DNA of 64,000 nucleotides from Blasia pusilla (GCA_050084515.1 CM114271.1:41850001-41914000), one strand, 5' to 3'. Positions 16,731-55,023 are shown, numbered from the stretch's first letter. Notes: generated from the letters alone by a model not told the origin. Numbers and translations: made by a program.

Positions 16731-16800
16731 GAAAGTGGGCGCTTCGCAGCTTCGCCACGCTTCCCTTTCCTCACTTCCTGCGCTTCGCTGCTTCGCAAAG

Positions 16801-16926
16801 CATGGGCTGTCTGGAACCTTGGTGCTTCGCTACTTCGCGAAGCATGGGCTGTCTAGAACCTTGGTGCTTTGCTACTTCGCGAAGCATGGGCTGTCTGGAA
16901 CTTTGGTGCTTCGCTACTTCGCGAAG
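16801..16926. repeat. 42-bp tandem repeat x3 between pol and the extra ORF
   Basis: CATGGGCTGTCTGGAACCTTGGTGCTTCGCTACTTCGCGAAG-like units at 16801, 16843 and 16885. Confidence 0.9.
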
Positions 16927-17034
16927 CACGGTATATCTTGAACTTCGTAGCCGTGACTTCGGGTTAATCAGATATCTTCGTGGCTTCGTGACTTCGCGAA
17001 GCACGGGGCGTTTGCCTACCCCCTTCCTCATGTT

Positions 17035-20000: not shown

Positions 20001-20795
20001 TTGATCTGACGTATAGCCGTCGTCAGTCGGTGGCGTCTCTCCTTGCGGTGGTCGAGATTTCCACGACAGCTTGATGAGCCGCTTCGAGTCCTGATTCGGC
20101 GCCTAGAACGTGAACCGTCGCCTTTTCCAATCTGTAGTCACTCTCGCGCCATACAGCCAGGGTCTTCCGATGAGCAAAGGATAGCCCGTCGCGGTCAGGG
20201 GCTGTAAGACTAAGTAGTCCAACATAAACAACACCCCCCCGAGCATGGTCGGAATTTGCGTGAGCTGTCCGAGGGGTCTCTTCCGGGATTGATCCGCGAG
20301 CCGCAAGTACTTGTCTGTGGGTTCGTACACCGTGTACCCTAGGGCCCGAGCTGTTTGCTCCATCATAATATTGATTCCGCTTCCGGAATCAATGGGGACC
20401 TTCTTAATAGTATGGCCCTCAATCTCCACCTCCACTTCGGGGGCTCCCAAGTCCTCGACTTTGATACGGAACAGGTCCACCACTGGCAGCTGCTTCGCTG
20501 CCTTCCTGGGTCTTTTGCGGTTGATTTTCCACTGCTGCAGGATTTTTCCGTATACTGGGTTATCCATTAGCAACTGCAGCAGGGTTATGTTGGCCGGGGT
20601 TGACGTCAAGTCCCTCAGTAAATCGTACGCTTCTAGGGTTGGCCTTTGCCTTCTCTGGGGTCTGTTTCCCCTCTGGTTCCTGGGCCTCCCGCACTTGAGC
20701 ACGGACCTGGTCCTCCACGTCCTGATGGAAGTATTTCGGATGACTTCGGTCAAAGGCCGGGTCCACATCGCCTTTGAGGATGGCTTTTCCGGCAC
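17035..20795 (-). pseudogene. pol: Gypsy pol: aspartic protease, RT, RNase H, integrase (disrupted)
   Basis: PIDSGSG (PR); FLDGYSGYNQ, MPFGLCNAPATFQ and FLDD (RT); YVDTS...TEREAL...FHVDH (RH); GGHY...CDAC, WGIDF and WMGPYRV (INT). Split across ORFs 20103-20795, 17820-19856 and 17035-17613. Confidence 0.95.
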
Positions 20796-22388
20796 GTAAG
20801 GTGTTCACCGCTTTGTTCTTGGGCTCCCGAGCTTCGCGCGAAGACGAAGCACCCTTCTTTACCTTTGGGGTCCCCGCGGTTTGACTCTTTGATCTCGTGG
20901 TGACCGCCAACACTGTTTCTTGAAATTCTTTGGGCCAGTCCGATGATTCTTCGTTGGCCCCTTGGGTCGAGTCTTCCTCGCTGATGGTGACTCGCTTTGG
21001 TCTCGGGGACACTACTTCTTCCACCCGAACCAGTTGTACATTTACATCGTTCTTGGGCTTTGGTTGAGCCGCTGGATTATTTACATACCTGACCAACAAA
21101 CGTGGGACCTTAGGCTCCGGGCATTCCACGGCCGTGTGCCCGCCCTTCTTGCAGTTCCCGCATAAGGGATTGAGTCCCCACTGGTTGCTTCGGGTTTGGG
21201 CAATTATTGGCCCAGTGGTCTGCTGCGCCACAGTTATAACAACAATTTCTCTTGATGGGTGGCGTGAAGGCCGCCGCACCCATAATCTGTCTCACGGGTC
21301 TCTGTTCCCCGTATTCCGGAGGTACATACCGCATGATCCAGCTTCTTCCAGGGTTTGGGGGTGGCACCGCTTGCACGGCATAGCACCCTTCCCACTGTTC
21401 TGGTTCATACCATCCTTCTTCAATAGGGGCCTCTTCCTGGACCCATCGCAGATCTCACGAGCAAGGCATTCTTGTACAGTATGCCCCTGGGTTCCACAAC
21501 TACTACACCAAACGTTGGGCCTCATCAGCCCGGGTCGTCTTCTGGAGTCCTTCTGGGCCGCCAGATGTACCTTCAACTCAGCCATTTGTTTACTGAGTTC
21601 CTCCATGGCCGATTTTCCGGCCTTCCTTGCCGTCCCTCTTACCGGACTTTCCGACCGCTGAGGACGACGCTTGGTACTTGGTCAGGGTTTAGTCTGGTGC
21701 TTGGGGAGCGATGACGCTTTTGCTCTTCCCTTTCCTTTTAGCTTTTACCTCCTCGCTCCGAGTCCGAGGACTCGGACTAATCCTCTGTAGAGGATTCCGT
21801 GTCGGTGGAGGACGCTTCGTCTTCGGACGAAGCACTAGTCTACGACGCCCCTCTTCGTTGGTGACGCCGTCTTCGTGTTCGGCGGGACTTTTTTGAAGCT
21901 TCGTACGCCTCAACAGAGGCTATGACTGCCTCTAGGGAATCCCGTTGACCTCTCCGGCAATACCTATCCATTTCTTTGGACAAGCCAGACACGAACCAAT
22001 CTACCAATTGGGAGGTAGTCGTGTGTTCTAGCTTATTCACAAGGCTCCAGAACCGTTGGGTATATTCCCGGAGAGTTTCCTTCTTTCTTCGCTTCAGGTC
22101 GCGAAGCTTTGTAAGAAGCCTGTCCTCGAACTCCAAGTCACGGAACTCATGTAGGAAGGATTCCACGACCCTTTTCCATGTCTCCGTGACTTCTGCTCCA
22201 AGACCTTCATACCACTGGCTTGCTCGCTTCTTGAGCAGGCCCGGGAAGACTCGTAACAAATCCTCCTCTGCCCCTTCCCCGTTGGCTTTTGCGACATGGG
22301 TGAATTCAAGAATAACGTTATCCACATCGTCTCGTCGGCCTCCAGCAAAGGTGGGGTACCTTAGCAGAGTTTTTCTAGTGTTGGCCAT
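20796..22388 (-). pseudogene. gag: Gypsy gag with three CCHC zinc knuckles (frameshifted)
   Basis: Retrotransposon gag motif (ASQWY...TWKRVVESFLHEF...ETLREYTQRF). Knuckles CSSCGTQGHTVQEC, CYNCGAADHWANNC and CGNCKKGGHTAVEC. Confidence 0.9.
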
Positions 22389-23127
22389 GGGTACTACTCT
22401 CCTGCTGGCTCCCGGGCTTGATGCTCGAGAGGGAGGAGGTAAAGGTGCCGCCCGAGGTGCTCTGATCGGCTCCTCGCTCCTTGACTCTCCAAAGGGATCC
22501 CAGGACGACTCTTCGTCCGACTGCGAACTGGCAGGGGACGTAGTGGGAAATTTGTCCCTTTCTTTCTTCTTGGTCTTCGTCTTTGGACGAGGACGAAGAC
22601 TCGGAGACGAACCAGGGGGTCTTCAAGCCGGTTGCTCTTCCTGCTGCCTACTGCGCCGATCGGCTCGCTGCTCTCGCGAAGAGGGCTGAGAGCCTTCCAT
22701 AAGTCTCTTGGGGGATTTGGCAACTCGCAATCACCCCCACGGTGGCGATAGGGAAAGGGTCCATGGATGGAGGTTAACTACTGATTCTTTTTACATCTGG
22801 GAGGAGGGTGCCTGGTGCTCCTATGCTTCTGCCAGTTTTCCTCCCATAGATGAAGTACCGGGTTTTCACCAAGTACAACTATAGTCCATGGGCAAAGCAC
22901 CGTTCGGCGACCGGTTCTTTGACCATTCTAATTAGTTGGCCTATCTTCTCTAGCACCAATGCAGCAACTGTATTGTTATCTTCAAGCATACATTGTCTTA
23001 CAGGGGTCGCTAGAGCTAGCCGATGGTCTTTAGTAAGAATTAGAATGTGGGTTGTCTAGGAGCGAAGCTTCTTTCTCCGTTCCCTGCTTCCCCATGGGTC
23101 TTTCTCTCCCTTCTCAGCCAAGGATAT

Positions 23128-29418: not shown

Positions 29419-32400
29419 TGTGAGAAAATAGAAAGTGACAAAATCACTGAAATCTTTACAAAACTTAGAGATACAAAGTGGCCAAGTCCGTTCGTGCGCT
29501 CACAAAAGAGCTTCGATGGAACCTGAACATGGAGATAACTCGACATACGAGAATACGCTACCATTGCGGCTCCTAACTATTTGACAACTTGGGAAAACTA
29601 GGGTTTTTACCTATTTTTCTTCGTTTCTATTAATAGGAAAATTTTGCCGGGGGCTACGCCCTCGAACCCCCGCGTCGTCTTGGCATACCAGGGGCTGCGT
29701 CCCGGCCCCCGTGACGCATCAGGTGCCCTGCACCCTGATGCAATATAGGGTTAGATAAATCTAGTAACGCTACTCCTAAAACCACCTACGTCATATTACT
29801 ATGACTCCTTCGACGTCTAAGTCAGAACCATCAATCTAGGCTTCTCCTCATATAAGGGGGCCGATCAGATTAATGGTGCTCAGAGGAGTGGATGTTGAGA
29901 ATCCAACACCCCCCCTCAATATCCACTCTCATGTGGACTACTGTCTTGGACCTATGCCAAGACCCTTCAGATGTCGGTGAAGCTGATCTCCGCTCAAAGC
30001 TTCCGTGAAGATGTCTGCACGGTTATCCTCTGTTGGACAATAGACTAACTTCAAAACCGCTCTCTCGATCAATTCACGAACAAAGTGATACTGGATCTCT
30101 GTGTGCTTCGTACGAGCATGAAACACATGATTATGTGCTATGGCAATGCAACTGTGATTGTCACACCACATTACAGTAGCATTTTCTGGTGCTTCTCCTA
30201 TGTCCTCCAATATCCATCTCAACCATACTGCTTCACAAGAAGCATAACAAGCCGCCTTGCACTCTGCCTCGGTAGAAGAAAGAGCCACTGTAGGTTGCTT
30301 CTTGCTTCTTGGTGACTCATGACACTACACATGATCCTACCAAGAAGCAATAACCCGAAACTGATCTTCGAGAATCTAAATCTCCTGCCCAATCCGAGTC
30401 ACAAAAACCTATCATTTCCGTCCCTGCTCCATAGGTGATGCCGTACTCGATAGTGCCTTTGATGTACTTCAAAATACGCATCCCTGACTTCCAATGGTTC
30501 TCACGAGGCTTAGTTGAGAACCTACTCAACACTCCCACAACAAAGCTAATGTCTGGTCTAGTGTTACACAAAAATATCAAACTGCCTACAAGCTTTCTGT
30601 ACAACTTTTCATCTACCAATGGTGAAACATCCTCCATCGAGAGTTTCAACTCTACCTCCATTGGCGAGACCACTGCCTTACACTCGGTCATCCCGAATGC
30701 CTTCAAGATTTCTCTAGCATACTTTTGATGAGAGAAAAATAGAATCTGACTATTGCCAAATTTCCAGCCCTATAAAGTAGTGCAGAAGACCTAAATCTGA
30801 CATTTCAAACTCAGATTTCAACACTCCCTTCATTTCCTCTATTTTCTTACTGTGATCTCCTTTGATGATAAGATCATCCACATACAGGACTATCAACATA
30901 TACATCCCATCTTGGCAAAACACATACAAATTTGCTTCTGACCGACTCTTGATGAGACCCTTCTCTCGAAAGAATGTATCTATTCGTTGATACCATATCC
31001 TTGGGGCTTGCTTCAACCCATACAATGCTCGATGAAGTAAACAAACTTTCTCTTCTGATCCGGGTGTCTCAAAACCTGGTGGTTGAGAAACATATACCTC
31101 CTCCTTGAGACTCCCATTCAGAAAGGCAGACTTCACATCGTATTGGTATACAGGCCAACGTCTTGTTCCTTCAACCGCTAGAACAATTCGAATGGTTGTC
31201 ATCCTTGCAGTAGGAGCAAAAGTCTCATAGTAGTCAAAACCTTTGATTTGTGAGCATCCTTGTGCAACCAACCTCGCTTTGAATTTATCCAATGTACCGT
31301 CCGACTTGTACTTGGTCTTGTACACCCACTTGGTGCGTATTATCTTCATGTCCTTTGGCTTTTCAACCAAAGTCCAAGTTTCATTTCTCTGAATAGCGTC
31401 CATCTCCATCTGCATGGCCTCTCTCTATTGAGGATGAGCCAGGGCCTCATCCAAGCATGATGGCTCTTCCACCTTCAAGACCTTTGTCATCAAGGCCATG
31501 TTGACGAGATGTGCGGAAGCTCTATTTTGCTCCTCTAGTCTCTTGGATCTCCTTGGATGTGTAACAACTTCATTAGTTGCTGGTGGATCCTTACCATCCA
31601 AGAGCTGCTTTATCCACTTAGGGTATGGCGACCGTTGTGGAAGAGCAGGTTGCTCTTTGTAATCATCACCAAATTCTTCTTCTTGATGATCTGGTGTAAA
31701 CATTGGTGGTATGCTCTGGTGGGTTATCTCTTCGTTTGATGATAATATGGACGGACCACCGATATCCGCCACTTGACGAGGCTGTTCTTGGAACACCAGA
31801 TCACGACTCACAAGCATCTTCTTTTCCTCAGGACACCAAAGGCGATAAGCTTTAGACTCATCACTGTATCCCATAAAGATGCACTTCCTGCTCTTGGACT
31901 CCAGCTTGGTCCTCGATGCTTTAGGAATATGTATGAAACACTCACTACCAAAAGTCCTGAAATGTTGGACTGATGGTACCTTACCTGAGTATGATTGATG
32001 AGGAGTCATGCCTTGCATTGACTTGGTAGCACTTCTATTTAGAATGTATACGGCAGTATTAACAGCTTCAGCCCAAAATCCTTCTATCAAACCTTTTTCT
32101 TTCATCATACATCTTGCCATCTCCACCACCGTACGGTTTCGACGCTCAACAACTCCATTTTTTTGTGGTGTATGTGCCATGGTTAACTGTCGCTTGATTC
32201 CATGCTCCCCCAAATATCTGTTGAATTCTGTTGATAAGAATTCTCCTCCTCGATCGTCGCGAAACTTTTGTGCCTTCTTTCCTGTCTCATTCTCAACCAC
32301 CTTGTGCCATACTTTAAATTTTCCAAAAGCACTTGCCTTATCACGAAGGAAATATATCCACATCTTCCTACTATAATCGTCGACAACTAAAAAGAAGTAG

Positions 32401-34414
32401 GAAGAACCACCTAATGCCACTGTTCTCATTTTACCACAGAGTTCAGCATGTATCAACTCTAGAGGAGCCTTTGCTCTATTGTTGGACTCTTGTGGAAATG
32501 GTTTTCGGTGTTGCTTGCCCATCATACAAGCTTCTCAAGTATCCGACATTCCAGAAATTGTTGGTAAATCAGCAACCATGCCAGATTTCTGCATCTGACT
32601 TAATAAGGGAAAGCTTAGGTGACCAAATCTTTCATGCCATAACTTACTGCTACTAAGATCTGTACCTACACTTGTCGTGAAAGCATACAACTCGTAGATA
32701 CTTCCACGTCGTATACCTTCATCCACTACTTTCCCATTGGCATCCTCAATGACTGCTCTAGTTTTCTTGAAATGAACTTCTAGGTCACGATCACATAAAT
32801 ACTGCCGTTGAAATCAAATTTTGCTTCAACTCTAGTACGTACAGTACATCAGTTAACTTCTTTTCATCTCCTTTTTGTGAGACTAAAGAAATTGTGCCTT
32901 TCCCTTCTTCAGGGCACTTTGCATTATTCCCAACAGTAACAACGATGGGCCTCTGAGAGGTGTGAAGGAGCTATACCAATCCTTATGATTGGTCATATGC
33001 CTAGATGCTCCACTATTGAGCACCCATGCATCTTCACTCTTTGACTTAGTGGAATGTTCTGCCTGTGTGCAAAACTCTTCTATTGCTACCCAAGCATCTA
33101 CTTCATGTTCTTCTAGTTCTACAGAATTTCCAGACTCCTTCTTAGGTCTTAAACAACCGTTCTTCTCATCTTGACTCCTCTTTCTACAATCTTTGATAAG
33201 ATGACCTAGCTTACCAGAATAAAAGTATTTGAAGGCTTTTCTTGGAAATTTCTTCTTGACATTTGAATTGTAATCCTGATTTGTACCTCTCTGTACGTTG
33301 GCAGTAAATGCTGCATCACTTCCCTCTCTTGCTTTGAAGCACATTTCCTCTTCTACCAACATTGCACTAAATTGTTCAAAAGTAAGCGGCAAGGGTCTTA
33401 CTTGATTATTCAGTGCAATGACCAAACTGTCATATCTTGGAGGCAAATCCTTATGCATCGACGTGCCAAATCTTTGCTAGACTTTGAAATTCCTACAGAC
33501 GCCATCTGATCTTGAAGATTCTTGATCCTTGTCAAAAATTGCTCCGCGCTTTCTCCTTCTGAAAATTTCTTGGAGGTAAGCTGATTCTCCAGATTCTGTA
33601 TCCGAGTCTCATTCCTCGTTTCATGCTCATTCTTCAAAATTTTCCATGCCTCAGCAGCAGTGGTTGTATGTTGAATGAGAGTCATGACAGAATCAATTAC
33701 ATTCGTGACAATCGCATATAGAGCATCAGCGTTTATGCGTCTCCATGCCAACAATACAACATGATCGATATCCCCAGATGAAGATGAACATGCAGAACTC
33801 AAAGTAGCTTGTGGATTTGAATCGACCCCTGTGGCCGTTTCCCAGATCTCAAATGATTCGAGGACAGTTCTCATTTTGAACTTCCACAACGTATAGTTAG
33901 ACCCATCTAACTTCCCTTTACCCAGCGGAGGAGGGCCAGCACGAACTGACGAAGAAGTAGCCATCTCTCAAGATTTTGTGCAAACACACTAGATCTTGGA
34001 GATACAAAATCTTTGGAAAACCCTATCGCTCGATACCATGTGAGAAAATAGAAAATGACGAAATCACTGAAATCTTTACAAAACTTAGAGATACAAAGTG
34101 GCCTAGTCTGTCCGTGCGCTCACTGAAGAGCTTCGATGGAACCTGAACATGGAGATAACTCGACATACGAGAATACGCTACTGCTGCGGCTCCCGACTAT
34201 TTGACTACTCGGGAAAACTAGAGTTTTTACCTATTTTTCTTCGTTTCTATTAATAGAAACATAAACCTAGTAACGCTACTCCTAAAACCACCTACGTCAT
34301 ATTACTATGACTCCTTCGACGTCTAAGTCGGAACCATCAATCTAGGCTTCTCCTCATACAAGGGGGCCGATCAGATTTATGGTGCTTAGAGGAGTGGATG
34401 TTGAGAATCCAACA
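29419..34414 (-). mobile_element. Full-length Ty1/Copia LTR retrotransposon (5.0 kb, decayed)
   Basis: LTRs 29419-29908 and 34039-34414 (TGTGAG...CCAACA), TSD GGCTA, Met-i type PBS TGGTATC-GAGC at 34028-34038, PPT at 29909-29919. Confidence 0.97.
29938..33964 (-). pseudogene. Copia gag-pol polyprotein (gag, PR, GAG-pre-INT, INT, RT, RH) with stops and frameshifts
   Basis: KLDGSNYTLWK (gag); WVLNSGASRHM (PR, D to N); LWHERFGH; VDDYSR...DRGGEF...NGVVERRNRT (INT); KARLVAQG, DVKSAFLNG and LYVDD (RT); CDSDWAG, SSTEAE and ADIFT (RH). Confidence 0.95.
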
Positions 34415-40191: not shown

Positions 40192-41129
40192 GAAGAAAAT
40201 AGACTCCGATCAGACATAACGTACATGTATCCAGGTTTCCCAACAATATAACTTTCCTAAAATTCATGTATGCCTAAACATACTACAACATACGTGAGAA
40301 AATCACAATTGAAGAGAGGGACAATGCGAAGGGCTTGTTAAGTAGCTGTAATATAGTTTTTTCACGAGTATCCTTTTGACCAACTATTTTAAATCCTTCG
40401 CACATGTCACCCATTAAGTAGACTCCATTAGCTAGATGGTTCACAACATACATTAGTAATGTATGAAACCAAATACATTTAACCACTCTACAATTTTTTC
40501 CAAGCCAAGGTATAGTAATAATGGGCCCATAAGGTTGTGGGCCGAGTAGGGTATGGATTATGTGAGGGTAGATATTAAGCATCCTTGTGAAAAAATAATC
40601 TTATGCAATTTCTTATAAGGACACAATTGGTCATCATCATAATCACTTGAGAGGGGCAGGGGGTGGGCAATATGAATTTGACTTCAGGGTGTCAATGGTT
40701 TATGGTGATGGGCTACCTAGCTTGTAAGGTATAGTTTCATAATTGGAGATGGCAACAAATGACGAATGAATACAATGTTCCACTTGTAGACAAACACATC
40801 CTAATCAAGAGACAATTCACTAAAATGTTTTAGCATTTTAGGGTTTAGGCTCCAAAAAGTGCTCCAAAAAGTGTTGAATGGACAAATTTAAAAATTGACT
40901 TGATATAAATATTGAGTTTTGCAATTGTGGCCGTTGATTCAAAGGATATGAGTGTCATTTTCAAAATCAAAGGATAGGAAACGGCAAGTGTCTATATATA
41001 GTCATACCACCTACCTAGTATTCAAAGAGGCTCAACCCTCTTTGTATCAAAAGTGGCTACCCTGCAAACTACACCAAAAGCCACGAGATTCTGTTCAGAC
41101 AAGATGAATCCCATCTTACCACCTGAAAA

Positions 41130-41717
41130 TCAAATCCATGAAATATGGTCTCTCAAAGGAGTCTGATGTGTGGGATCAACTTTGTGGTGGTGGCAATAAA
41201 ACCACCACCTATCATCGCCACATGCAGCATGGTCATACATAATCCTATCACATGCATAACCCTTGCTCATTGCTTCGTTCAAGCAAGTCCAGTGCCATGC
41301 AATCAGACACCTAGGACAATACACCATGTCCTCCGAGAACTCCTCATCGCGCTTATGGCATCCTCGGCAATAATGCATGGGGTATGCCTCCATTTTCGGA
41401 GGCAAACAAGTAAAACAAAAAAATCTCACACAATACGTATCTGGGCACTGTCTCACACGAAGCTCCGATTCCTCACTTTATGCAAATGTTCCTTGTATAC
41501 CACAATTGGCACACTTGGCCGTCTTCTTCACACAATCTAGGAAAAACCAGCTCCCTACGTGGTTAGGTGGAAGATCTACCCCAGGACAAGCATTTTCTAT
41601 AGCCCCGGCTGATTCTGAAGTTGTGTTGAAATGTCTAGCACAAGGTCCGTCGCAAACAACCAACTCCTCCCCATCCTCACAGATTGCACAAATGTGGGCT
41701 GCCTTCTAGTGAATCGG
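41130..41717 (-). pseudogene. EDM2-like tandem PHD-finger pseudogene, interrupted by MULE-B; probably continues at 54204-54262
   Basis: ICAICEDGEELVVCDGPCARHF...KCANCG...QCPDTYCVRFF...HYCRGC...CPRCLIAWHWTCL...FYCHHHKVDPTHQTPLRDHI follows the EDM2 PHD region pattern (CAICDNGG..CCEG.C.RSFH...YC..H.ID....TP.RDH). In-frame stop and lost cysteines. Confidence 0.8.
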
Positions 41718-44134
41718 GAGTGCACTCGGGGGCAAGTATTCTGACAGGAGAGAGTAAGAGAGGAGAGGAAGAGAGGAAGAGAGGGAGAGAGGAGAGTCTC
41801 TCTTAAAAAAAAAGGGCCAAATCCGCCTCCTCTCTTCAAAACTTTTTGACATATTTGAAATTTTTGTTTGCTTTAAAATTCAGGAAATCTTTAGAAGAGA
41901 GTATTTAGTGGTCCACATTTGGCCCTAAAAAAACCTCCTCTCTCTTGGGGGCGAGAAAAAAGGAGACATCATAAGACCACCCTAAACATTTTTCCATCAC
42001 TCTCCATGTGAGCCTAAGTTTCTTAACATTCCCTGTCTCGGTCAACAAAAAGCACTGCCCTTGGTATTTTTGTTGGAGGACCTCCCGGATGGGTACCTCT
42101 TTTGCAGGATTGTTGCTGCATCATGGCCTCCCTAAATTGCCCCATAACCAACTTTCATCGGGTTATGAATGGTGTCTGCTCAAGACCAACTTTCTGAAAT
42201 GTGAACAAATCAGATCCTAAGGCTGAGAAACCGAGAAGCTGAACCCCTCCCAACCTGTAAGAAAGCTCACCATAAGAAAAGGAAAGATTTTTAGAAGTGA
42301 TTTTCTTCCACCCTCGCACCCACGACGATCTAACGGGTTGGGAATCCGAAATGGCAATCCAAGCGGTGTAGTAGGAATCTGCATATCTTAGACAAGAAAA
42401 GAAGCCTACAATCTGGTTGGACAAATGAAGGGAACGAGCCAAAAGTCAAGAAGCCCGCCACAATGCGCCGTGGTTGGTCTCACCGGATAGAGTCCGATCA
42501 CTCAGTAAATCAACTGTCGGAACCGGACAGTCGCTCGAAATGGTTGAAAAGTTGCAAAGTGGGCAAAAGCAAAAAGTCGAATCACACGGGTTGCAGAATT
42601 GTAATTCTGAGAGCTAAAAGAACACAATCCACAAGTCCAAAAACATATTCCAGCAAACTTTTACAAACATCATTATGGGTTGAAAAAATCTCGTCCTTTA
42701 TTACCTCCGAAGGAACCTCGGAAATGTTCATTTCACCTAGTCTATGATTTCCTGAGCCTCGTCATCTACAAATTTACTCCTAACTCTCCTCGGTGACAGT
42801 ACCAAAGGAATGTCCTAGGATTCAAGTGGCTCCTCTGGCCGATTGTAGACGGGGATCGAAAATGTTGGCGAATTCGAGAGCCTTGGCCCCCCCCTAGGTA
42901 CACCATAACGGTCCCATGTAACCTATCTCGAGTCCCACCGCCTTCCTCGGCAGTATACCTTGTACGCCCGCAATGTGACACCCATCCAAGATCAATATCG
43001 CTCCGTCCCCGGTAATACCACTATGGCAACCGCACAGGTAGAAGGAATCCAACACGTCTGAGAGAAGAAAAGAAGCCTACGCCTGCCTTTACGAGTTGAG
43101 GGGAAGGTGCCAAGGGAAGAAGCCCGCCAGACTACCTCTTAAGTTGGACCAACAGGGAAAGGGTTCGATCAAGCAACCTGTCGGAATCAGACAGGTTGCC
43201 TGGAGGTGGTAAAAAGGGTGCAGTGGTCAAAAAGCGAAAAGTTGCAAGGAGGAGAAATCCGACGGGTTGCAGTGGTCATAAAGTGAAAGTTGCAAGCAAG
43301 AGAAATCCGACGGGTTGCAAAGTAGAAGTCCGTGAAGTACATAGACGATCACATTCGAAAAGAAAAAATGATCAGCAAACATTTACAAGCACCACCATCG
43401 ATCGAAAAAATCTTCTACTTTATATCATCCGAAAAAAGCTCGGAACTGTACATTTGATCTATTTTATGAAATCTTTTGCCTCATTATCAAAAAACTCCCT
43501 ACTCCAAACGCTGCAGTCAAGCTAGGTTGTTGAGTTCTTTGAACTCACTCGTCATCGTCCGAGAGCTCTTGCAAAATCACTTTCGTCCTTGCCCTCCCGA
43601 TTTTGGGAATCGTTGGAAGTGACGATGGAGTCACTACCAAGGGTGGCTCTAGAACCGGAGCTCTCGGCTTCGGTGGAGAGTTGTACGCCCCAATGAGCCT
43701 TTCGTATTCTGCCTTTGCCTCCTTGCAAAGGTCAAACAGTTTCTGCCTTCCCTTTAGGCAGAGAATGTTCCTGCCACTCTGCCAGGCGCCTTTGATACTT
43801 GCCCCTGAAAGTCCCACTAAGTCGAACACCAAATCACCCGGCCTTGAGCAGAGCTCGATGAGCGTTTGCATCAGGGCTCGCGACTTTTCCCTTCCTCCCA
43901 GAAGTGGGATACTGTCTTGCATGTAAATTCCCGGGGGGGAATTGTACAAACTATCTAAGCTGTACCCATCTGAGCATGGATCCACAGGATCCTAGATCTT
44001 GAACACCTGGAAATTGTGCTCGGGCGAACGTAATCAGAGAGCGAGGGAGTGGTCCATCTCAGTAAATCAAAGACGTTGGAAACAATGTCGAAACTAAAGA
44101 AGTCGCCTTGAGAACATTTTCAATAATCGACTTT

Positions 44135-44520
44135 GGATCAACTCGCCGGAGTCCGACGGGTTTTTTGTCCGGACCAACCGCCGAAACCCGGACGGGTTGC
44201 GATTGCTGCTGGGTTTTCCCGGTTGATTTTGGTTTTGGATGCAACCCGTCGGAAGGCGACGGGTTCTTCGGCCTGGAGCGATCCATGCTCGCTTTGAGAA
44301 TAACCCGTCGCTATCAGACGGGTTGAATCCAAAAACCAAAATCAACTGGGAAAACCCAAAAGCAACTGCAACCTGTCGGGTTCCGACGGGTTGCAGGTAC
44401 ACCGCGGTTTTCCCTGTGTATGTGGGAAAGATGCAACCCGTCGGAAACCGACGGGTTGCTCTCAGCCAAGCATGGGCTGCTCTAAGCCAGCAACCCGTCG
44501 CCTTCCGACGGGTTGCTCAC
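44135..44520. repeat. Palindrome array (GCAACCCGTCGG-NNN-CCGACGGGTTGC) in cargo intron 3
   Basis: About 7 copies; perfect example at 44433-44459. Confidence 0.9.
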
Positions 44521-46639
44521 GGACAAAAAAAACCCAGATTGACTCTCATTCTACACATCATCATAAGATAATTGAAATTATTGTACAGGAATTGAGCCTT
44601 ACCCGAATCTGACTCTTCGCGGATCAGAGTGGGTACTCGCTTTTGATGATCCACGATTGTGCCGTCCTCCACTTTAGCGACCTCTTGACGCACTGGAGGT
44701 TGAAGAGCTCGTCCTCTCTCCCTCCAGTCAACACCAAGAAGCAGCCCCTGTCACTCAGATAGGCGTCTGCGAAGGAGAACAAAAGTGCAATCGGGTCATA
44801 ACTGAGCGGCACATTCCACTCAAGTACCTCGTCCGACGGATTCTCGCCCCAAAGTCGCAACCCCGAGGGCAGATCGGCGATCAAGAGATCCACCGCAACC
44901 TCTTCGACCACTCCATTCAACGTCGAGGCAGCGTGCCCGTTTCGTTGGAGCTTCCGTCCCAGCGTTGTCAATTTTTCGATGGCTGGTGTCGACGCTTGAG
45001 AACTGAAGCTCTTCAGCTCATCCAGTAAAGGAGTGGCGAAGGAGGACGCTTGTCCGGGTCGTTGTTTGTCTGTGTCTTCCCAAGGATGATGGGTTGTATT
45101 CTCCTTGGGACAACCCGGGCACCTCTCGCTTCCGCTTCTCCCTAGCCTGGGGACGGCTTGTCGGGGTTTCTATGACCTCGGATTCTGGTGGCGTTTTTTT
45201 TGCCGAGGACCTGGTCCAACCCTCTCTCCCCGCTCGTCTAGACGATTCCGCCTCTGGCCTTGAATCTTCAGCCTCTCTTTGGGAAGACTCGGCCTCTGAA
45301 TTTTTCCCTCCCTCGCCTTGCCTTTGAGACCCGCTGTGGATTTGTCTTTGGCTGTCCAGACCTTGGAAGCCAACTCAGCTGTCTCGTGGGCCTGCTCTTC
45401 TGCATCTCCTCCGAAGAAGTCTTCAGGCTAGACGAAATTGGGGATGTCGTCTTGTCCTAAGGCGACTGCATCATGAAGCACTCGTAAGTCCTTATCCGTG
45501 ATGTCTTCAGGGTCGTTGAAGTCGAGCCAAATGGGGCAATTCTCCACCTCCCAATCGGACATGTGCTGCCCCATCTCCACGTCATACATGGAGAATGTCT
45601 CTGCATCCAGCGGCAAAGCCCACAATTTCAAGGCTACCGGTAATTTTCCCCACGTACCTGCGTTCTTACACTGGACGAGGTACCTGAAGACCATTTGTTG
45701 GGCAGCTTTTAGTCGAACAGAATCGGCCGTCTGCTCCTGTAGATCTCGCTTCTTCTTCGCTTGATCCCGTTTGTTCCCCTCTACTTCTTCGTCAAGCTCT
45801 GCCTGAGGGAGGACGCAAACCTTGAACATGGTCTTGAATCTTGGGTTTTTTGTTGGCTTGTCCCGGATGTCGTCGAGCCAAACCTCGTAATCTCCAGAAC
45901 TTTTAAGGTTTGCTTCCGGCGGAATGGGCTCTAATCTTCTGAGCTCCGCTTGCAGACCGTCCAGCACGGACTTCGCGATTACCCGCAACGCGTCCTTGAA
46001 CGACCATTCGCGTAGCCAATGCAAGATCACTAGATCAGACACACCCGGAGGATGGTGTGCCGCCCTCTTCTGGGCCTCTGAGCCCTCGAGACTGATTTTC
46101 ATCAGTCGTATCCTCCTGAACTCGCTTATCCTGGACAACGCAAACCGATGCACGCGATCTAGCGACACTTTCTCCCCAATCCGACCATGCGGATCTTCAT
46201 CCCTCTTCCGCTGGCGCTTGATAATCGCCTTCAGCTCATTGTAGAACTTTGGACCAAGTTCGGGGTTGAGAATGCTTATGTATCGCTGCATCTTGCTCGC
46301 CGTGTATTTCGTTGCAGCAGATACTGCAACTTGGATGAATTTGGCACGCTCAGACGCAGATACCTTCTCCCTCTGCTCCAACTCCAGTGCAACGCTTTTC
46401 TTCACGGCCTGTATCTTCGACCAACAAAGGATGGTTACGGTTGCATCTTGAGAAATAAACTTGTTTGCCCAAGTTTTCTTCTTAATCTGAGCACCCTTTG
46501 CAAGCATCTGATTGACGAGGGCATCGCCCAAGAACCCCCTGTACTCTCCCGGGTGCGTCGTAAGCACCTTCCTCACCCGATCACAGTCCTAGATCCAGTG
46601 GTGGGTGACATTCCCCTCCGATACAATCCTGCACATCCA

Positions 46640-47275
46640 AACTCAACCCGTCAGGAAATTACATGGGTTCCTGCAACCCGTCGAACTCCGACGGGTCGTC
46701 ACAGCTCAAGGTCGGATTCTAGCAACGAGCTTAATGATGCAACCCGTCGGAGTCCGACGGATTGCATTCAGATTTGCTAATGCCTGGTAAGCAAACTGTC
46801 GGAGTCCAACGGATTGCTCGATAGGCCGCCTTGTGAGGGTGTTTTTTTAAGAATGCAACTCGTCGGACTCCGACGAGTTGCTCGAGTCCGACGGGTTGAT
46901 ATGGGGAAAAATAGCTTCGAGGCAAGCAACCCGTCGGACTCCGACGGTTTGCTTTGGGGAAAAAACCTTCTAAACCTGCAGTCACTCGAACAACTCGTCG
47001 GAGTCCGACAAGTTGCATTCTTCAAAAAGCATCCTCACAAGGCGGCCTGTCGAGCAACCCGTCGGACTCCGACGGTTTGCTTTGGGCCAAAAACTAGTTA
47101 AATCTATGTTCAATCAAACAAGTTGTCGGAGTCCGACGAGTTGCAATCTTAAAAAAACATCCGAAAAAGCGTGCAGTCCAGCAACCCGTCGGAGTCCGAC
47201 GAGTTGCTTTCGGCAAAAACAAACCTAACCCATTCATCAATCGAGAAACTCGTCAGAGTCCGACGAGTTGCGAAA
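46640..47275. repeat. Palindrome array in cargo intron 2
   Basis: About 11-12 copies, mostly at ~60-65-bp spacing. Confidence 0.9.
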
Positions 47276-48738
47276 GTGTTAAAGATACTCATGTGTTCAT
47301 GGCATGCATTGCCATCTCCACCGTCGCCATGTGATGAGGGTATGGGTGAAGGACCACTGCCTTCACGCAAAAATGTGCCTCCAATGAGTTGGGCCGCTCC
47401 TCCGCAAACTTGGTCCACGCCATGAACTTGTGATTTCCATCCCAGATGAAGAAATGCAGATTCCTCATCCAGCTGAATTCCGTGCCCTCAACTTGCCTTC
47501 TGAAGTCCTGGTCTCGCATCCTCCAGAATGTGTCAAGCTTTTCCAAGTCCTCCTCGGTAACCAGAGCTTGGGTTCCATGCTCTTTGTAAGGCTAAACATA
47601 GAAGGGAGGAAAGCTGTCGACGTAGGATGCTATCGCCGCCGATTGTTTTAGCCCGCGATGTCCTCGCTCGGACTGAATTTTTGGACGTATTCCATTGTCC
47701 GCAATCGGCAGAGTGGAATCCTCGGGGCATTGTGGCTCTCCATGAGTGCCATCTGCTTTACCACCTGTCAGAACCGAGACAAGAGGAATAAGCTACACTG
47801 AAATCCCAATGAATTGCAATTCACATAATTCAAAAAACCCAGAACCTCTCTTACCCGCTCGAAAATGGGGTCGGTTTCTTGACCAGCTAACTTGTCTGAG
47901 ACAAAGGCTGGCAAATCGACTGGAAACTCGTCGATCCGATAGAGGTCGATGTCCTCCGCCGGGCTTGGAGTCGAGAATGACCGCTCTCCGGCTTCTTCGG
48001 CCATGTCCACCATCTCCACGTTGGCGGTCCTCATGACCTCGTCGTCATCGATTTCAACTTCTGTTGTTTCCACTATGTTGATTGTGTCCCCGGACTTCGT
48101 GGGGGACATTTCCCGCATCTCAACACTTGCGGTTGGACGGGCTGGGCTATCGTCAATGGCTATTGCTTTTTCCCTCCTCGCTTTAGCCAATTCTGCCCTC
48201 CTCACCGACGCGTCCAGGCGCTTCTTTTCTCTCTTTTCGTCGGCGATCCTTTTCTTCAAGGCCTGCAACGTCTCGGCCTCTGCGTTCTGTTAATCTAGCG
48301 CCTCTTGAACACGTCTTGCAAGAAGCACTTGGTTGTGCATCTCCGCTTCCCTTTCCCGCTCCTCGATTTCCTGCTGCCTAATTTCATTCGCCGAACGAGG
48401 CCCAGGAGAAGCTGACGGAGGAGTCCTAATGGACTTGGGAGTGAAGCTCCCTGACTTGTTGGCTTGTGATTTTTTCCTCGTCATTTTTTCCGGAAATGCC
48501 TCCACCTATGTCCATGACGAATTCCTTGATCAGTCGCCTTGCTGATGTCGAGATGGGGCGTCGAATCGTCCCGCTATCGCTCCGTCGAACGCTCTCGCCT
48601 CGTTTCTCCTCCTATCGACTCGCTACCATTGTGCATGCGGTGAAATGCCCTTCAGATCGATCAGTTGCTCGCTGGAAGAGTGAGGAGTGAGGAATGAAGA
48701 TCGCAAAATGAGAAACCAGAAATGAGCGATTTCTGCCC

Positions 48739-49699
48739 TATTTATACTTTTCTAGCCGTTGGGCTGACCGTTGGGTCCCGTCATCCTTTCCACGGCGACG
48801 TGCCGGATGTTACGGAAGTCCGGACGTGAAAAATGGCAACCCGTCGGAGTCCGACAGGTTGCGCGGCTCCGCCATCCTGGGTACGTCGCCACGTGCGCGA
48901 GCAACCTGTCGGGGACCGACAGGTTGAGCGGCTCCGTCGTCTTCAGAAAAGAACGCGAGGTACCTGCGCAACCCGTCGGAGACCGACATGTTGCGCGCCT
49001 CCGCCATCTTGGGTACGTTGCCACGTGCGCGAGCAACCCGTCGGAGACCGAAGGGTTGAGCGCCTCCGTCATCTTCGGAAAACAACGCGAGGTACCCGCG
49101 CAACCCGTCGGAGCCCGACATGTTGCGCGCCTCCGCCGTGTTTGGGACGGGAACGGGACGTATCTTGGGCAATCCGTCGGAGACCGTTGGGTTGCACGCT
49201 TCCCTCATCAAGGGTTAGGAACGAGGGCTTCCCGTGCAAGTCGTCGGAGTCTGGCGGGCTGCACCACAAGGCGAGGCCCTTGGGCAACCCGTTGGAGGGC
49301 GACGGGTTGCACGCCTTGCCGTCTTTGGGCTAAAAGGCGAGGCACCCGCGGAACTCGTCGGGAACAGACGGTTTGCACGCCTCCGGCATCTTCGGGCAAG
49401 AAGGATCGGTATCCGAGCAACTCGTCGGAGAGCGACGGGTTGCTTGCTTCGACAATGTTTAGCATAAGCGTGCAACCCGTCCGATGCCGACGGGTTGCAG
49501 GCTTCGGTTAACTTCGGGTAATTTCCGAGTTACCAGGACTCCGACGGGTTCCAAGTGTGATACGCAACCCTCTGCTTCCCAAATCCGGTAACATATTGCA
49601 ACAGAATTGAATGTGTTACAAAATTGGATCCATTGTGTCAGACAATGTCACCCACCGAATTCATCTGTCAGGAGTATCTGTTTCCTATTCACTATAAAT
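48739..49699. promoter_or_regulatory. Putative bidirectional promoter: outward-facing TATA boxes flanking a palindrome array
   Basis: TATAAATA on minus (48739-48746) and TATAAAT on plus (49693-49699). About 11-12 palindromes at ~65-bp spacing from 48836 to 49550. Confidence 0.55.
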
Positions 49700-49750
49700 T
49701 AAATATTCTCATTCTCATTCTCAGTCTCCTCCCGTTGGAATCTTCTTGGA

Positions 49751-52700
49751 ATGGATAATTATGTTAAGCTCACTTGTGGCAGTCATCTGACGGCCCTTCC
49801 TCAATCGGAAATCATTCGACCCCAAGCTCGTGAGTCTTTCATAGCAGTGGATGAAAATTTTCTGTCTGATCGATTTCTTCTTCAAATTGGAACCATCTTT
49901 GTATCCAAAGATGTTAGGGTGGATGGTATGGAAGACATAATAGGTGAGACGGTCCAGCCAGTGACCTCAGACCGTAAAGTATGGAATCTCCTACCTCTAC
50001 CAAATGGTCAATACAGAGTTTACGGCCTGCCCCTGAATTCGTCTGTTTCCCAAGTAGACGGTCTAGAATTTCCTAGTGCTCCGAGCTCTACGTTTGCAAC
50101 TCCAAGCTCTGCAGATCCGGCTTCGACTCCAACTTTGCACGCTCGTAACAATGTTGGTTTTCCAGAATAGATTCCGGATGTTATCAACCTCAGTGGATCT
50201 GTCGGGCACCAATCGGGCCCTCTCTCCGCCTACTCGTTCCTCTTGCGAGTATCAGGCAATAGTTTGCTTTCATCTCTGCCCTTGAAAATGTTCAAGCACA
50301 TTCTTGTCGACGAGCTGCCGCCCACGTACGATGGTAATTGCATTTTTGAGTTGCCTCCACTTGTTGCTCCTGCTCAAAAGAAGGATGGAGGACGCCTGAA
50401 GGGTATGGACAGAAAGTCTGATTGTCATCGATAGTGTAGGCTTCAACGGACCAGTGCTTCAATTCCAGATGGTCCTTGGATTGTCTCCCGCCGCCAATGC
50501 GTGGGATCCTTGGAGTGTAGAAGTCCAGCATGCCCGTATCTAGAGCGTAACGGGCAAGTCAATACGTCGCAATTCCCTCCCAAGAATGCAGAAACTCCAT
50601 ACGAGGTCTGTGCCACCATACCGCCCGGAGGCCATCGATGTCCTCATTGTCAAGCATCGCCCTTCTGCGTTGGAGCGTGTCCTGCATACATATTTTTCAT
50701 TGTCCACGACTTGGGCTCCATGTCAGAGTAAACAAGGCTGGTTGTCCATGTTGGCTCCCACACTCATCCTGTGACCGATGCAATTCAAAGACACATCAAG
50801 GAGGATGTGGCGAAGAAAGTAGCCGAGGTCTACAGAAACTCTCCGGGTTCAAAGCCCGGAGTGATCAAGCTCACAACGGCATCACAAATTTGTGAACAAT
50901 TGCTTGGAATCCCAGGACAGGGCGAGATCACAGCGGTTGAGGAGAAACAACTCTGGGAAAATCTCGCATTTCTCGCTGAACCTGAATGCTTCCGGAATTT
51001 GCTGCGTCAGATATGAGTTCTGGATGGAATGACGGCCGAAATGGATGCCATCGCCAGAATCAAGGCCAACTCCAGATTTCCATTCATTCAGAGATGGCAG
51101 TTCATGGGCCAAGGAGGCGAGGGATCTAGGGCCTATGTCTTCAAAATATCAACCACAGGTCCGTCAAGTGGCCTCGATCTTATAGATCGAATGAGGGAAG
51201 GGGAAGATCTTTACGGGAGCTGGGTAAGCTTTGATATTTGCTACAGAGTGCTGAACGGATGGTTGACGATGGATGCTCACGTTTATGACCATGTGGAGAA
51301 GGGACTCAAAACTATATTTGTCTGTGAAGTAAAGGCAGAAGACGTTGGCATTTTGAAGATGTGCTGGTTACTCTTATTGGAGGTGGTGAAGGAAAACAAA
51401 AGGCCACCTCTGGAAATTTATGGGTTCATGGCAAACAATGCACAACCTGGGTGGATTGCTATCCGGGAAGTGTTCTCGGGTGGAGAGGTTCAACCGGAGA
51501 GGGAAAGATCGGATGCTTTCCATTGGCAACAGTCTGTGACCCGGTACACCAAATCTTGCATCAAGGAGAATAAGAGGACAGAGCATGTCACTCTACTCCA
51601 ACGCAAGGACAGACAAAAAACCTTGAAGTAGGCCATGGAATGCCGGGGAAGAACTTCATGGGTGGTGGAGGAAGCATGCGATTGAGGGGAAGTACAAAGA
51701 GTTGTGCTCTTGGTTGAGTTGGTGGACTGTACGTATGAGACAATGGGGAAACTTCATGCGGCAGGTGAGTTCAGTATTTTGTCTTGTCAAGCTCACGCTG
51801 AGAATTGTTTGTAAGGTTGTAGCTCAGGATGAGAAGCGTGGGAATTATATGGATTTCAAACCCAAGAAACCAAGCAAGCTGTCGGATGCGACGGGTTGCC
51901 CGAGTGTGCAACCCGATGGAAACCGACGGGTTGCCCGAGTGTGCAACGTGACGGAAACTGACGGGTTGCCCAAGGGTGCAACCCGACGGAAACCGACGGG
52001 TTGCATCCAGATGTTTGGTGTCGTCCCGAGTGTGCAACCCATCATGATCCGACGGGTCACAGAGTCGTTTATGGGATGCCTCGGCCTTGCAACCCGTCGG
52101 GTTCTGACGGGTTGCAGTAGGTGGGTTTAAGGTTACAAAACGTCGGGACCCGACGGGTCGCAGAGTCGTTCATGGGATGCCTCGGGCCTGCAACCCATCT
52201 GGTTCCGACAGGTCGCTTATTTCTTTGACTCCTGAGTTATTTTCGTTCCCTTCTAACATTGCCATCTTTGTAGGGATTGAACGTTCATGAAAATGCCCTC
52301 TGCCCCAACACAAGTGGAGCAGAAAGTGTTCATTCCTCTTGGAGGTCATCACAAGCATGCCAACGAATTTCTCTTGTGGAGGCATGCCAACAAGACCAGG
52401 CAAGAGCAATGCTACAGTCTGCAACATCCCATATCTTTCTCACAAAAGGCATAACAAAAGGAAAAGGGCCGTCGATCTACGAGCTCTATGTCGTAGGTAA
52501 TTTGTGAGATCTGGTGATGAAAAATTGTATGTAAAGCCTTCAACCGGTGCGTAGTGGAACTCCACTCGAGCAAGACGTACACATAGGTGGGGATATTCGT
52601 GGGCGGGTTTCAAGACGTCCCATACAGATGGTGGTAGAGCAGTCCGAACGAGACTCGTGGAGACCAGATAAGTATCTTGACTTCAGGGAGGTGAAGAGGC

Positions 52701-53775
52701 AGCATCGAGGAATGAATCCGGTGATTGATTTGGATGAGGAAATTACACCGCCGAGGTATTCGGGGACCCCGGACCCGTCCCAAATCCGTGCTGGCGTTAC
52801 TTCTCCAAAATCAGTGAATGTTTTATTTCAAAAGCCCTTCGTTGTTGGAAGTTCGCAACATCCTGTCACTGGGGTGGTTCAACAATATGGGATTCTAGTA
52901 ATGGAGGTGGATTGCAACCTAAAATGGTGGCATATATCTCGGAGCAACCCAGGACGTGGACCCACCTGCAGGGCAGGATCTGATGGCATTAGGAGAGCAT
53001 GCGGCACTTTCCTAAATAAGAATCGCACAAGGATGGACGACCTCTGCCTGGGTTTTGGGGACTCAAAACCTTTGATCATTTCACGAGGACTGGGGATCAA
53101 TTGAAGTACTTCTTCTGCCCAAATGAATCTTGCGCTTTCCGGAAGTCTTATCCGGCTGCCATTGGAGCTCCCGGGAATACCCCCACGATTTGGCCCATCG
53201 CCGTAGGCACAAACTGCACTCAAGACCAAGTGGACAATCTTACAAGTGCCGGTTTCAGACTCGTAGACGGGGGAAGCTCGGAGCATGTTCGCATCACAGA
53301 GACCTTCGCATTTCGTATTCAACCCAAGATTGATGTCAACATGTACCCGGAGAAGGTGGATGATCTCAATCCATTATTTCTGTTTGAGTCTAGAAATAGG
53401 GTGAAGAGAAACAGAATGTGCAGGCCAACGGTGGAGAGAGCAAAGCGAATTGCAGCAGCTTGGGAGGCAAAAATGGAGATCATCGCCATGAAAGATGTCT
53501 TGAGTGGCAATGGAATAGGAAGGATGTATTGGGTCAAGAACAACACTGTAAATTCAAGTGTCACAAGGGTGTATGTGGTGCACATCTGTTGCTTTCCCAC
53601 ATGTTCATGTGATGACTTTGTCCAAAGAGAGACAAGTGGCAAAAGGTATTTCCCTTGTAAGCACATGTACTATGTGTTGCTGGTAGTTTTAAGAGAGTCG
53701 GAGGTAGGAGTAGGAATCCACCAACCAATTCTATCCCTCAAAGAAGTGCGAAGTATTTTAAACAAACCACTTTGA
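49751..53775 (+). pseudogene. MULE-B transposase (GCM-type zinc finger, DDE core, SWIM); exons 49751-51764 and 52274-53775
   Basis: CVGSLECRSPACPY...CPHCQ...CVGACPAYIF...HVGSHTHP; WVSFD (D1); GFMANNAQ (D2 reads N); ERSDAFHW (CxxH position); SGAESVHSSW (E); CSCDDF...PCKH (SWIM). Six in-frame stops (50168, 50432, 50729, 51014, 51629, 52505) and two frameshifts. Intron GTGAGT 51765 to TAG 52273, phase 0. Confidence 0.8.
51870..52215. repeat. Palindrome array in the transposase intron
   Basis: About 8 copies, the first four at 35-bp spacing. Confidence 0.9.
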
Positions 53776-55023
53776 GGATGCAAAATGAGATTTTAGATTG
53801 TACTTTTATTTTTCCTCAACCTTCACTTTGAGCTTGAACTCTATTCAGCCCGGGGCAAATGATAGATTTTTTCCAGACCTTGGATGGAAAAAGTGATTGG
53901 TTCCACACTTATGATTCCACTGATTTTTCAGTTTTCTAAATTTTGTGCAATTTGCAACTCGTCGGACTCAAATGGGTTGCCAAAATATGGAAGAGGAAAA
54001 AAAAACTGTGGGACTGCTTAATATATGAACAAAAAAGTTCAATAAAATTCAAACAAAAATTTTCCTCTCTTCAACCCAACAGAAACTCTCTTAAAAAAAA
54101 AGTAGCTATTTCGGTTGAAGGTAGTTTCCTCTCTCCTCTCTCCTCTCTTCCTCTCTCCTCTCTTCCTCTCTTCCTCTCCTCTTACCGCACCTCGAGTGCA
54201 CTCTATGGTGCTAAACAACGCATCTTGGAGGCTTTCTTGGCTTGTAGCTTCGGGCACGCCAGCTATATGTCAAAGTTATATGTATACAAACCATAACAAA
54301 AGTCAATTGTAGTAGTGTAAGACAAAGCTCATGGAAGAAAGAGGTGAGGGAAAGATTACATCACTAGTAATGAATTGTGTGTATAGTATCTTTCAAAGAG
54401 GAAAAATCAAAATCTTTAGTGTATATATTTTCTTATTGATAATATGGGGAAGCACCCCTAAGTGTCAAACCCATATGAATGACCATCCTAGTATGCAGTC
54501 TGTGACAATATCACCAAGAAAAAATGACAAACACCCAAAATTAGTTATTGTGCACACACAATTTACATCATCGTCCTATTCATTGATTGTATCTTTATGT
54601 CACATATATATGGGGGCAAACTACTTAAATTATTTTTGTGATGGAACATCGAAATGTCTCATGATCTCACCCTAAAATATACATTAGGCTTGTCTATTTC
54701 AGGGTGTGGAAACCCTCCACAAAGTGCCTTATGCTCAAAATTGCAAGACCCTTAGATTAGGTGCGTTTCAAGTGTTTGAGAGGTGTGCAATATAGTGTCT
54801 AAAAATATGAACACCGTATTCATAACAACATCTGTATCTAAGTATCCATTCATCATGCATTTTTAATGTCATTCCCATACTTGTCCATATTATATTAACA
54901 TCACATCTATTTTGAGTTCATAATCATAGTGTCCAATTTATGAGTGTGTGTGGACTATTACTGTTTTGAGTTAGTGTACAAAATTGCTCTAGGGAAAATT
55001 TAGAAGGAAGAAAGTCCAAAAAA

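Follow-up and report, generated by a model that had tools for sequence, protein, structure and literature searches.

Self-recognition and counter-silencing by transposons are known in molecular detail only for the VANDAL/VANC system of Arabidopsis, in which the introns, intergenic stretches and terminal regions of a Mutator-like element (MULE) hold motif arrays that are bound by VANC, a protein encoded by the same element, the motif being the 9-bp YAGTATTAY (Hosaka et al. 2017, PMC5735166). A second set of described systems comes from red algae, where Plavaka, Mutator, Zisupton and Fanzor-bearing elements carry PAG2 (a PF01555 methylase plus SET) and PAG3 (a ParB-like domain plus 2OG oxygenase), and tandem inverted-repeat arrays adjoin PAG3; the authors propose self-binding (bioRxiv 10.1101/2025.02.11.637652). 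Here, we report a DNA transposon, most likely Mutator-like, at positions 41718-54203 of a 64,000-nucleotide stretch of the genome of the liverwort Blasia pusilla (GCA_050084515.1 CM114271.1:41850001-41914000; the whole 64-kb stretch is hereafter called the window), which carries a transposase gene, a divergent accessory gene, and arrays of a 27-bp palindrome. Our preferred reading, to which we give a probability of about 55% by analogy with the systems above, is that these components form a self-recognition module, in which an element-encoded dimeric protein, more likely the accessory protein, would bind the palindromes and protect or mark the element.

The locus resembles VANDAL elements in its probable Mutator type, in its pairing of a transposase gene with an accessory gene, and in its family-specific motif arrays, which occupy non-coding parts and were formed by tandem duplication as in VANDAL (PMC5735166). 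Unlike in VANDAL elements, DUF1985 and DUF287 were absent from Pfam scans and a methyltransferase-like domain was found instead; the repeated site is a 27-bp palindrome rather than the 9-bp motif of VANC, and the comparison with the hypomethylation caused by VANC extends here to sequence features only. With the red-algal elements, which were compared by description, the locus shares a PF01555-type domain on a DNA transposon, a proposed ParB-like domain, and internal inverted-repeat arrays. In contrast to PAG2 and PAG3, both domains would here share one polypeptide, Pfam scans of the accessory family gave no SET or 2OG-oxygenase match, and the nearest named relatives at the protein level come from liverworts instead of red algae.

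The preliminary description of this DNA knew of no account of such an architecture, a statement that is overtaken by the red-algal elements of the 2025 preprint (bioRxiv 10.1101/2025.02.11.637652) and by VANDAL/VANC as a functional analogue. For land plants, searches of open-access papers and bioRxiv preprints turned up neither this gene family nor this architecture, and the accessory family is unannotated so far. Transposon self-recognition of the VANDAL/VANC kind and the red-algal PAG cassette are already known. Three features are new here: one polypeptide includes a methyltransferase-like domain of phage type, the non-coding DNA of the element is filled throughout with a 27-bp palindrome, and every named member of the family comes from a liverwort. 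An accessory protein unrelated to VANC, paired with cis-arrays of its own in bryophytes, would demonstrate more than one origin of the strategy, and the palindrome together with a defined protein family offers a testable protein-site pair.

A bounded element with its own palindrome arrays

Inverted ends delimit one element of approximately 12.5 kb. An 11-mer, GAGTGCACTCG, has two exact matches in the window, at 41718 (plus strand) and, inverted, at 54203 (minus strand), against 0.01 expected from shuffles; by this count, only one pair of ends is seen for the element. Local alignment pairs 41718-41793 with 54203-54127, giving long terminal inverted repeats (TIRs) of approximately 76 nt. The left TIR (41718..41793, plus strand) begins with the tip GAGTGCACTCG and continues as a (GAGAGGAA)n tract, and the right TIR (54127..54203, minus strand) is defined by the local alignment and by inverted matches of the tip and of a 14-mer from the GA-rich tract that lies behind each tip. 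With at most one mismatch, this 14-mer has eight matches in the window, seven of which are at the element ends, inverted. The outermost 10 nt of the ends, GAGTGCACTC, are themselves palindromic, which leaves two readings, the tip of the TIRs or a 10-bp target-site duplication of the size (9-11 bp) that Mutator-like elements make; the flanks of the element showed no further repeat. Over positions 41000-55000, no Rfam family was found.

The transposase gene lies on the plus strand and the accessory gene, divergently, on the minus strand. A bounded element with a transposase gene and a divergent second gene had been proposed in the preliminary description, and the inverted GAGTGCACTCG, the alignment of the ends, and the two opposed genes bear this out. 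The transposase gene comprises an N-terminal Cys/His-rich part with a DDE-like core (50435..51631, plus strand; stops at 50729-50731 and 51014-51016), recognised with the ESM Atlas, and a C-terminal part in two overlapping frames (52535..53775, plus strand) with a SWIM-type motif, CSCx16CKH. The ESM Atlas neighbours of 51017-51631 are MULE and ZSWIM1-3 RNaseH-like (0.95), and the ten best all belong to the same family or clan, which is a lead only. Pfam SWIM matched the C-terminal part at E 0.016 and 15.2 bits, below the cut-off of 19.6, whole Pfam gave no match to 50435-51631 at E up to 1, and a word-based protein search with the read-through transposase found nothing. Considering the long inverted ends, the neighbours of the core, and the SWIM-type motif, the element is most likely Mutator-like. 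Accessory genes common to both once led to Plavaka elements being misfiled as Mutator, as reported in the red-algal preprint (bioRxiv 10.1101/2025.02.11.637652), which calls for caution in this assignment.

Every non-coding segment of the element (the downstream regions, the introns of both genes, and the shared promoter region) holds tandem arrays of the same palindrome. Its half-site, CCGACGGGTTGC, has 76 matches at up to two mismatches, compared with 2.5 expected, and 71 of these fall within 42583-53965. The full palindrome spans 27 nt, consisting of GCAACCCGTCGG, three variable nt, and CCGACGGGTTGC. The palindromes are element-specific: at up to three mismatches per half, 35 full units were found inside the element and none elsewhere in the window. 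An earlier count of about 40 element-specific palindromes was a fair estimate, given these 35 units and 76 half-sites.

The clusters are located downstream of the accessory gene (43173..43320; one full unit plus half-sites in a 48-nt tandem repeat), in the putative intron between the two methyltransferase-like exons of that gene (44138..44516; six units), in the putative intron between its DGNHK block and its long exon (46673..47271; nine units, spaced at approximately 64 nt), between the two divergent genes (48836..49498; 11 units, spaced at approximately 65-67 nt), and within the transposase gene, between its coding blocks (51908..52216; seven units, spaced at 35-56 nt). A single unit lies in the right subterminal region (53954..53980). 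Each cluster has its own tandem period of 35, 48, 67/132, or 128 nt. Regular spacing of approximately 64-67 nt was observed in the two largest clusters and part of a third, and spacings of 35 and approximately 55 nt in the cluster of the transposase intron. Between clusters, the palindrome cores are 80% identical, a value partly forced by the rule used to select the units, whereas identity in the 20-nt flanks is no higher than random (25-27%). This indicates that the palindrome alone is common to the clusters. No unit was found inside the TIRs, the arrays being internal and not concentrated at the ends.

The units can fold as 12-bp stems, but covariation between their arms does not exceed that of shuffled controls (203/500 and 190/500 shuffles score at least as high as the real arms). 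We therefore read the units as symmetric duplex protein sites and rejected, as the primary reading, a hairpin selected at the RNA or DNA level.

The accessory gene family and its methyltransferase-like domain

As predicted from sequence comparison, the accessory protein consists of four parts: a charged N-terminus, a WDGNH(R/K/Q) block, a helical middle domain, and a C-terminal methyltransferase-like domain. By tblastn, four minus-strand blocks are collinear with P0036, a 1207-aa protein of Riccia sorocarpa, and with other relatives. These are 47725-47295 (P0036 residues 174-321; 34% identity over 123 aa, E 6.9e-16), 46621-45443 (P0036 residues 324-683; 23% identity, E 1.7e-20), 45013-44630 (residues 900-1028 of another relative, P0005; 28% identity, E 1.4e-7), and 43898-43668 (P0036 residues 1106-1175; 32% identity, E 2e-7). 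The corresponding gene parts, all on the minus strand, are as follows. The K/E/R-rich N-terminal region (47771..48505), for which no homology was found, was placed by position and frame only and contains one in-frame stop (48292-48290). The "ParB-like" block with WDGNHK (47292..47725) was defined by the tblastn match to P0036 and an alignment with 21 relatives, and has a TAG at 47594-47592 and a frame change near 47660. The putative long exon (44627..46628) holds the helical middle domain and the N-terminal half of the methyltransferase-like domain (LLIADLPSG), interrupted by TAGs at 46591-46589, 45430-45428, and 45172-45170. The putative last exon (43548..43991) holds methyltransferase motifs X-I (LIELCSRPGDLVFDLVGLSGAS), detected with Pfam, PHROGs, and tblastn.

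We searched for relatives exhaustively with HMMER, using the long exon with its stops as X against 1.84 billion representatives at E up to 1e-3. This yielded 29 relatives (best E 1.5e-29), among them 19 R. sorocarpa gene models and one from R. fluitans. With the DGNHR region of a Riccia member as the query, a second search yielded 29 R. sorocarpa clusters, 21 of which were new, located on contigs with eight different lengths. NCBI labels the 20 Riccia relatives from HMMER and all 29 clusters of the second search "hypothetical protein". UniRef calls some R. sorocarpa members (P0036, P0034, and P0037) "Trimethylguanosine synthase", whereas our scans matched the DNA methylase family only. The R. 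sorocarpa gene models number in the dozens, are dispersed and are often fragmentary, as is typical of transposon genes and not of host genes; judging from these sequence matches, liverworts carry the accessory gene family in many copies, which is what a transposon origin predicts. The middle block of the window protein is 18-26% identical, about equally, to every relative, indicating that the window protein represents a separate lineage of the family. Word-based protein searches with the 386-aa exon found nothing, and viral and prokaryotic genome scans with P0037 gave no match.

In the AlphaFold2 model of the relative P0017, the middle domain (approximately residues 272-410, corresponding to 46621-45443 in the window) is helical, with a pLDDT above 90 obtained from only 26 sequences. 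A Foldseek search of this model against the PDB gave no match for the helical domain, which may represent a fold without a solved relative.

The second part of the protein reads WDGNHK in the window and WDGNH(R/Q) in 21 Riccia relatives, WDGNH being invariant in the alignment. A DGxHR-type motif at a core strand-helix junction marks ParB/Srx-type domains, and the surroundings of the motif in this family, IPLCRL..F.RVR....L..SF...GY, are what we take to be ParB/Srx-like. Three true ParB_N domains carry GHTR, GEGR, and GGRR instead of a DGxHR-type motif. In the AlphaFold2 model of P0017, the block has a pLDDT below 50, too low to judge the fold, and no PDB entry was matched by Foldseek at E below 0.9. 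According to the ESM Atlas, the named clusters nearest to the DGNHR block of a Riccia relative are DUF3723 (0.96), with ParB_N at rank 12 (0.92); this is a language-model lead, and Pfam PF12520 (DUF3723) had no match in the 26 family members scanned. Taking the motif and this lead together, the block is possibly ParB/Srx-like, short of proof. DUF3723 is an accessory gene of fungal Starship elements, of unknown function (PMC9156397), and thus resembles the present gene as an accessory gene of a large transposon as well as through the language-model neighbourhood of the DGNHR block.

On homology, the C-terminal domain is a real, diverged DNA methyltransferase fold of the beta class (N6_N4-type, phage-like). 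The last exon matched Pfam N6_N4_Mtase (PF01555) at E 1.1e-3 and 19.4 bits, and four Riccia relatives scored 23.7, 24.8, 25.9, and 26.2 bits, all five below the 26.7-bit gathering cut-off and always at profile positions 165-218; a precomputed database table lists PF01555 for P0060. DNA methyltransferase families of PHROGs matched P0037 (E 2.4e-7) and the window exon (E 2.5e-5, 2.5e-4, and 7.7e-4). When the 1207-aa protein was compared with 50,697 phage records by tblastn, all 15 matches fell on residues 1109-1174, and 13 of the 15 are annotated as methyltransferase or methylase; plasmid matches (4/4) were in the same region, all annotated as DNA methyltransferase. Over motifs X-I, hhalign of the family against four phage methylases gave a probability of 94% (E 1.4e-7, 52 columns, 42% identity). 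These motifs are the best-conserved part between the window and Riccia (GDLVFDLVGLSGAS vs GDIVIDFAGGWGAT) despite an overall identity of approximately 25%, and the domain probably still binds S-adenosylmethionine (SAM).

The motif order is that of the beta class. In P0037, motif IV is at 27-34 and motif I at 192-203, compared with approximately 30 and 207 in the phage enzymes, in a domain of approximately 230 aa, so that the spacing from motif IV to motif I is approximately 167 aa vs approximately 177 aa. The N-terminal half aligns collinearly by eye (LLIADLPSG..W vs LVIADIPYN..W, followed by a hydrophobic strand). The AlphaFold2 model of the methyltransferase-like domain of P0037 had a mean pLDDT of 43.5 from an 11-row alignment, too low for a structure search. 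Sequence searches of the PDB with P0037, two transposase open reading frames, and the family profile gave as their only notable match a Thermus modification methylase at motif I (E 2.2, non-significant).

Canonical motif IV is (D/N/S)-P-P-(Y/F/W), and to our knowledge its aromatic residue is near-universal in amino-methyltransferases. The motif had been described beforehand as DPPY/SPPY, but the window reads DLPSG. None of 11 sequences (the window and ten relatives) has an aromatic residue at the fourth position, the relatives having DLPT, DMPS, DLPK, DMPI, DMPT, and NIPT. This makes ordinary amino-methylation activity, and with it the "DNA-modifying" module of the preliminary description, doubtful. 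The amino-methyltransferase-like gene of that description does show homology at motifs X-I, with PF01555 scores below the cut-off and a non-canonical motif IV. A conserved SAM loop with a degenerate catalytic loop poses the biochemical question of whether the domain would be a reader or binder or an unusual writer. The nearest phage methyltransferases (L001-L004) have DIPY, not DPPY, and the liverwort family has the same D-(I/L/M)-P part.

Phage and plasmid methyltransferases of the beta class, such as the Lactobacillus phage Lrm1 methylase, share motifs X-I, motif order, and domain length with the liverwort domain. They differ in that the liverwort motif IV lacks the aromatic residue, the liverwort scores are below the Pfam cut-off, and the liverwort domain is fused to approximately 900 residues of eukaryote-specific sequence, encoded by a gene with introns. 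Phage-type methyltransferase-like domains are rare in eukaryotes. Marchantia DN4MT1 is likewise a prokaryote-type amino-methyltransferase fold in a liverwort, but it has a canonical TSPPY and belongs to a host gene pair expressed in sperm that is not known to be transposon-borne (bioRxiv 10.1101/2021.02.12.428880). An active writer of N4-methylcytosine (4mC) of the DN4MT1 type was rejected for the accessory protein, as TSPPY is absent.

Candidate binders of the palindromes

We infer that the palindromes would serve as symmetric double-stranded binding sites, through which an element-encoded dimeric protein could recognise the copies that make up its own family. As the binder we favour the accessory protein, which would act as a self-recognition, anti-silencing, or self-marking factor, in a mode like that of VANC in VANDAL and like that suggested for PAG3 in red-algal Plavaka.

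Several results weigh against this proposal. The element in the window is a dead, decayed copy, the own expression of which is uninformative: the accessory gene is interrupted by five or more in-frame stops, including a TAG where the relatives have the Q of a conserved WIQ, and changes frame once, and the transposase gene has two stops and overlapping frames, so that this copy cannot be active. The palindrome sites are also decaying in this copy, not maintained; 25 of 91 mismatches to the palindrome consensus are CpG-to-TpG/CpA changes, which fit the decay of a methylated, silent copy. The transposase has no match to the Pfam MULE domain (PF10551) at E up to 1, and the Mutator-like label of the preliminary description is accordingly likely, given the long TIRs, and not proven. 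Its ParB-like reading is likewise unproven: the DGxHR-type motif is present, as DGNHK in the window, but Pfam, PHROGs, and NCBIfam scans of the window block and up to 26 relatives gave no match to ParB_N (PF02195) or related families, hhalign of the block against the three genuine ParB_N domains was not significant (E 0.24), and the block family profile had no relevant match among PDB sequences. For the N-terminal half of the methyltransferase domain, hhalign was not significant either (E 0.026, probability 1.9%). In two metagenome scans, one with the single window exon and the other with a four-row sub-alignment, relatives were not found. Finally, the palindrome arrays could equally serve the transposase.

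This last point leads to a somewhat unlikely alternative, in which the transposase would use the arrays as its own binding or regulatory sites, to recognise the ends or to activate its own transcription, and the accessory protein would act otherwise or not at all. Both the transposase gene and the shared promoter region also contain arrays, a single unit is found close to the right end, and the Cys/His-rich N-terminus of the transposase is a putative DNA-binding part; moreover, a 2026 preprint reports that the AtMu1 transposase activates cognate copies in a sequence-specific manner. However, the TIRs contain no unit, the arrays are internal and not concentrated at the ends, and comparable internal arrays in VANDAL are bound by the accessory protein (PMC5735166). 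We favour the accessory protein as the binder of the palindromes.

A bolder extension, which we consider improbable, is that the element belongs to a land-plant transposon lineage with a phage-derived ParB-methyltransferase fusion that would act on parS-like palindrome arrays, writing or blocking DNA modification against silencing, with kinship to red-algal PAG2/PAG3 and perhaps to the DUF3723 gene of fungal Starships. If this were true, the ParB-methyltransferase fusion would be an ancient "self-recognition" module that was mobilised again and again among DNA transposons of eukaryotes, and prokaryotic amino-methyltransferases may have reached plants through it.

More improbable still is an accessory protein that works as an N4C/N6A methyltransferase, binds DNA through a ParB module, and methylates the palindromes of its own element as a self-mark or anti-silencing mark. 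The conservation of the SAM-binding motifs X-I between the window and Riccia at approximately 25% overall identity, and the DGNH(R/K/Q) motif, which shows no exception when the window block is aligned with 21 Riccia relatives, would agree with such an enzyme, and the DIPY of the phage relatives implies that D-(I/L/M)-P is not aberrant in itself. The fourth position of motif IV, aromatic in none of the 11 family sequences, is nevertheless hard to reconcile with it; DN4MT1, the functional eukaryotic 4mC writer, keeps TSPPY (bioRxiv 10.1101/2021.02.12.428880), the ParB homology is unconfirmed, and all PF01555 scores are below the curated cut-off.

The least probable explanation, that the second gene is a passenger (a host gene captured as in Pack-MULEs, or a nested unrelated element) and the arrays are functionless, satellite-like tandem repeats, would suit a dead copy with tandemly repeated arrays. 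Against it, one and the same palindrome, with unrelated flanks, occupies the intergenic spacer as well as the introns of the two genes, a single pair of ends is present, and the dozens of dispersed R. sorocarpa gene models have the pattern of a transposon gene.

Surroundings and left non-coding part of the element

The neighbourhood of the element is rich in transposons. A Ty3-type retroelement lies at 14516-22689 on the minus strand (RVT_1, RNase H, integrase zinc domain, and gag), and a Ty1/copia-type retroelement lies in 30750-33967, also on the minus strand (approximately 30.7-32.5 kb; RVT_2 and rve). Minus-strand open reading frames at 41130-41705 show a Cys/His-rich, PHD-finger-like pattern (e.g., CAICEDGEELVVCDGPCARHF) and finish 13 nt away from the left TIR; the element may have inserted beside or into a PHD-finger-like gene. 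Within the left non-coding part of the element, repeat pairs 671-722 nt apart in 42386-43503 (42386/43057, 42580/43256, and 42651/43373, the last with 73% identity over 131 nt) suggest a tandem duplication of approximately 700 nt.

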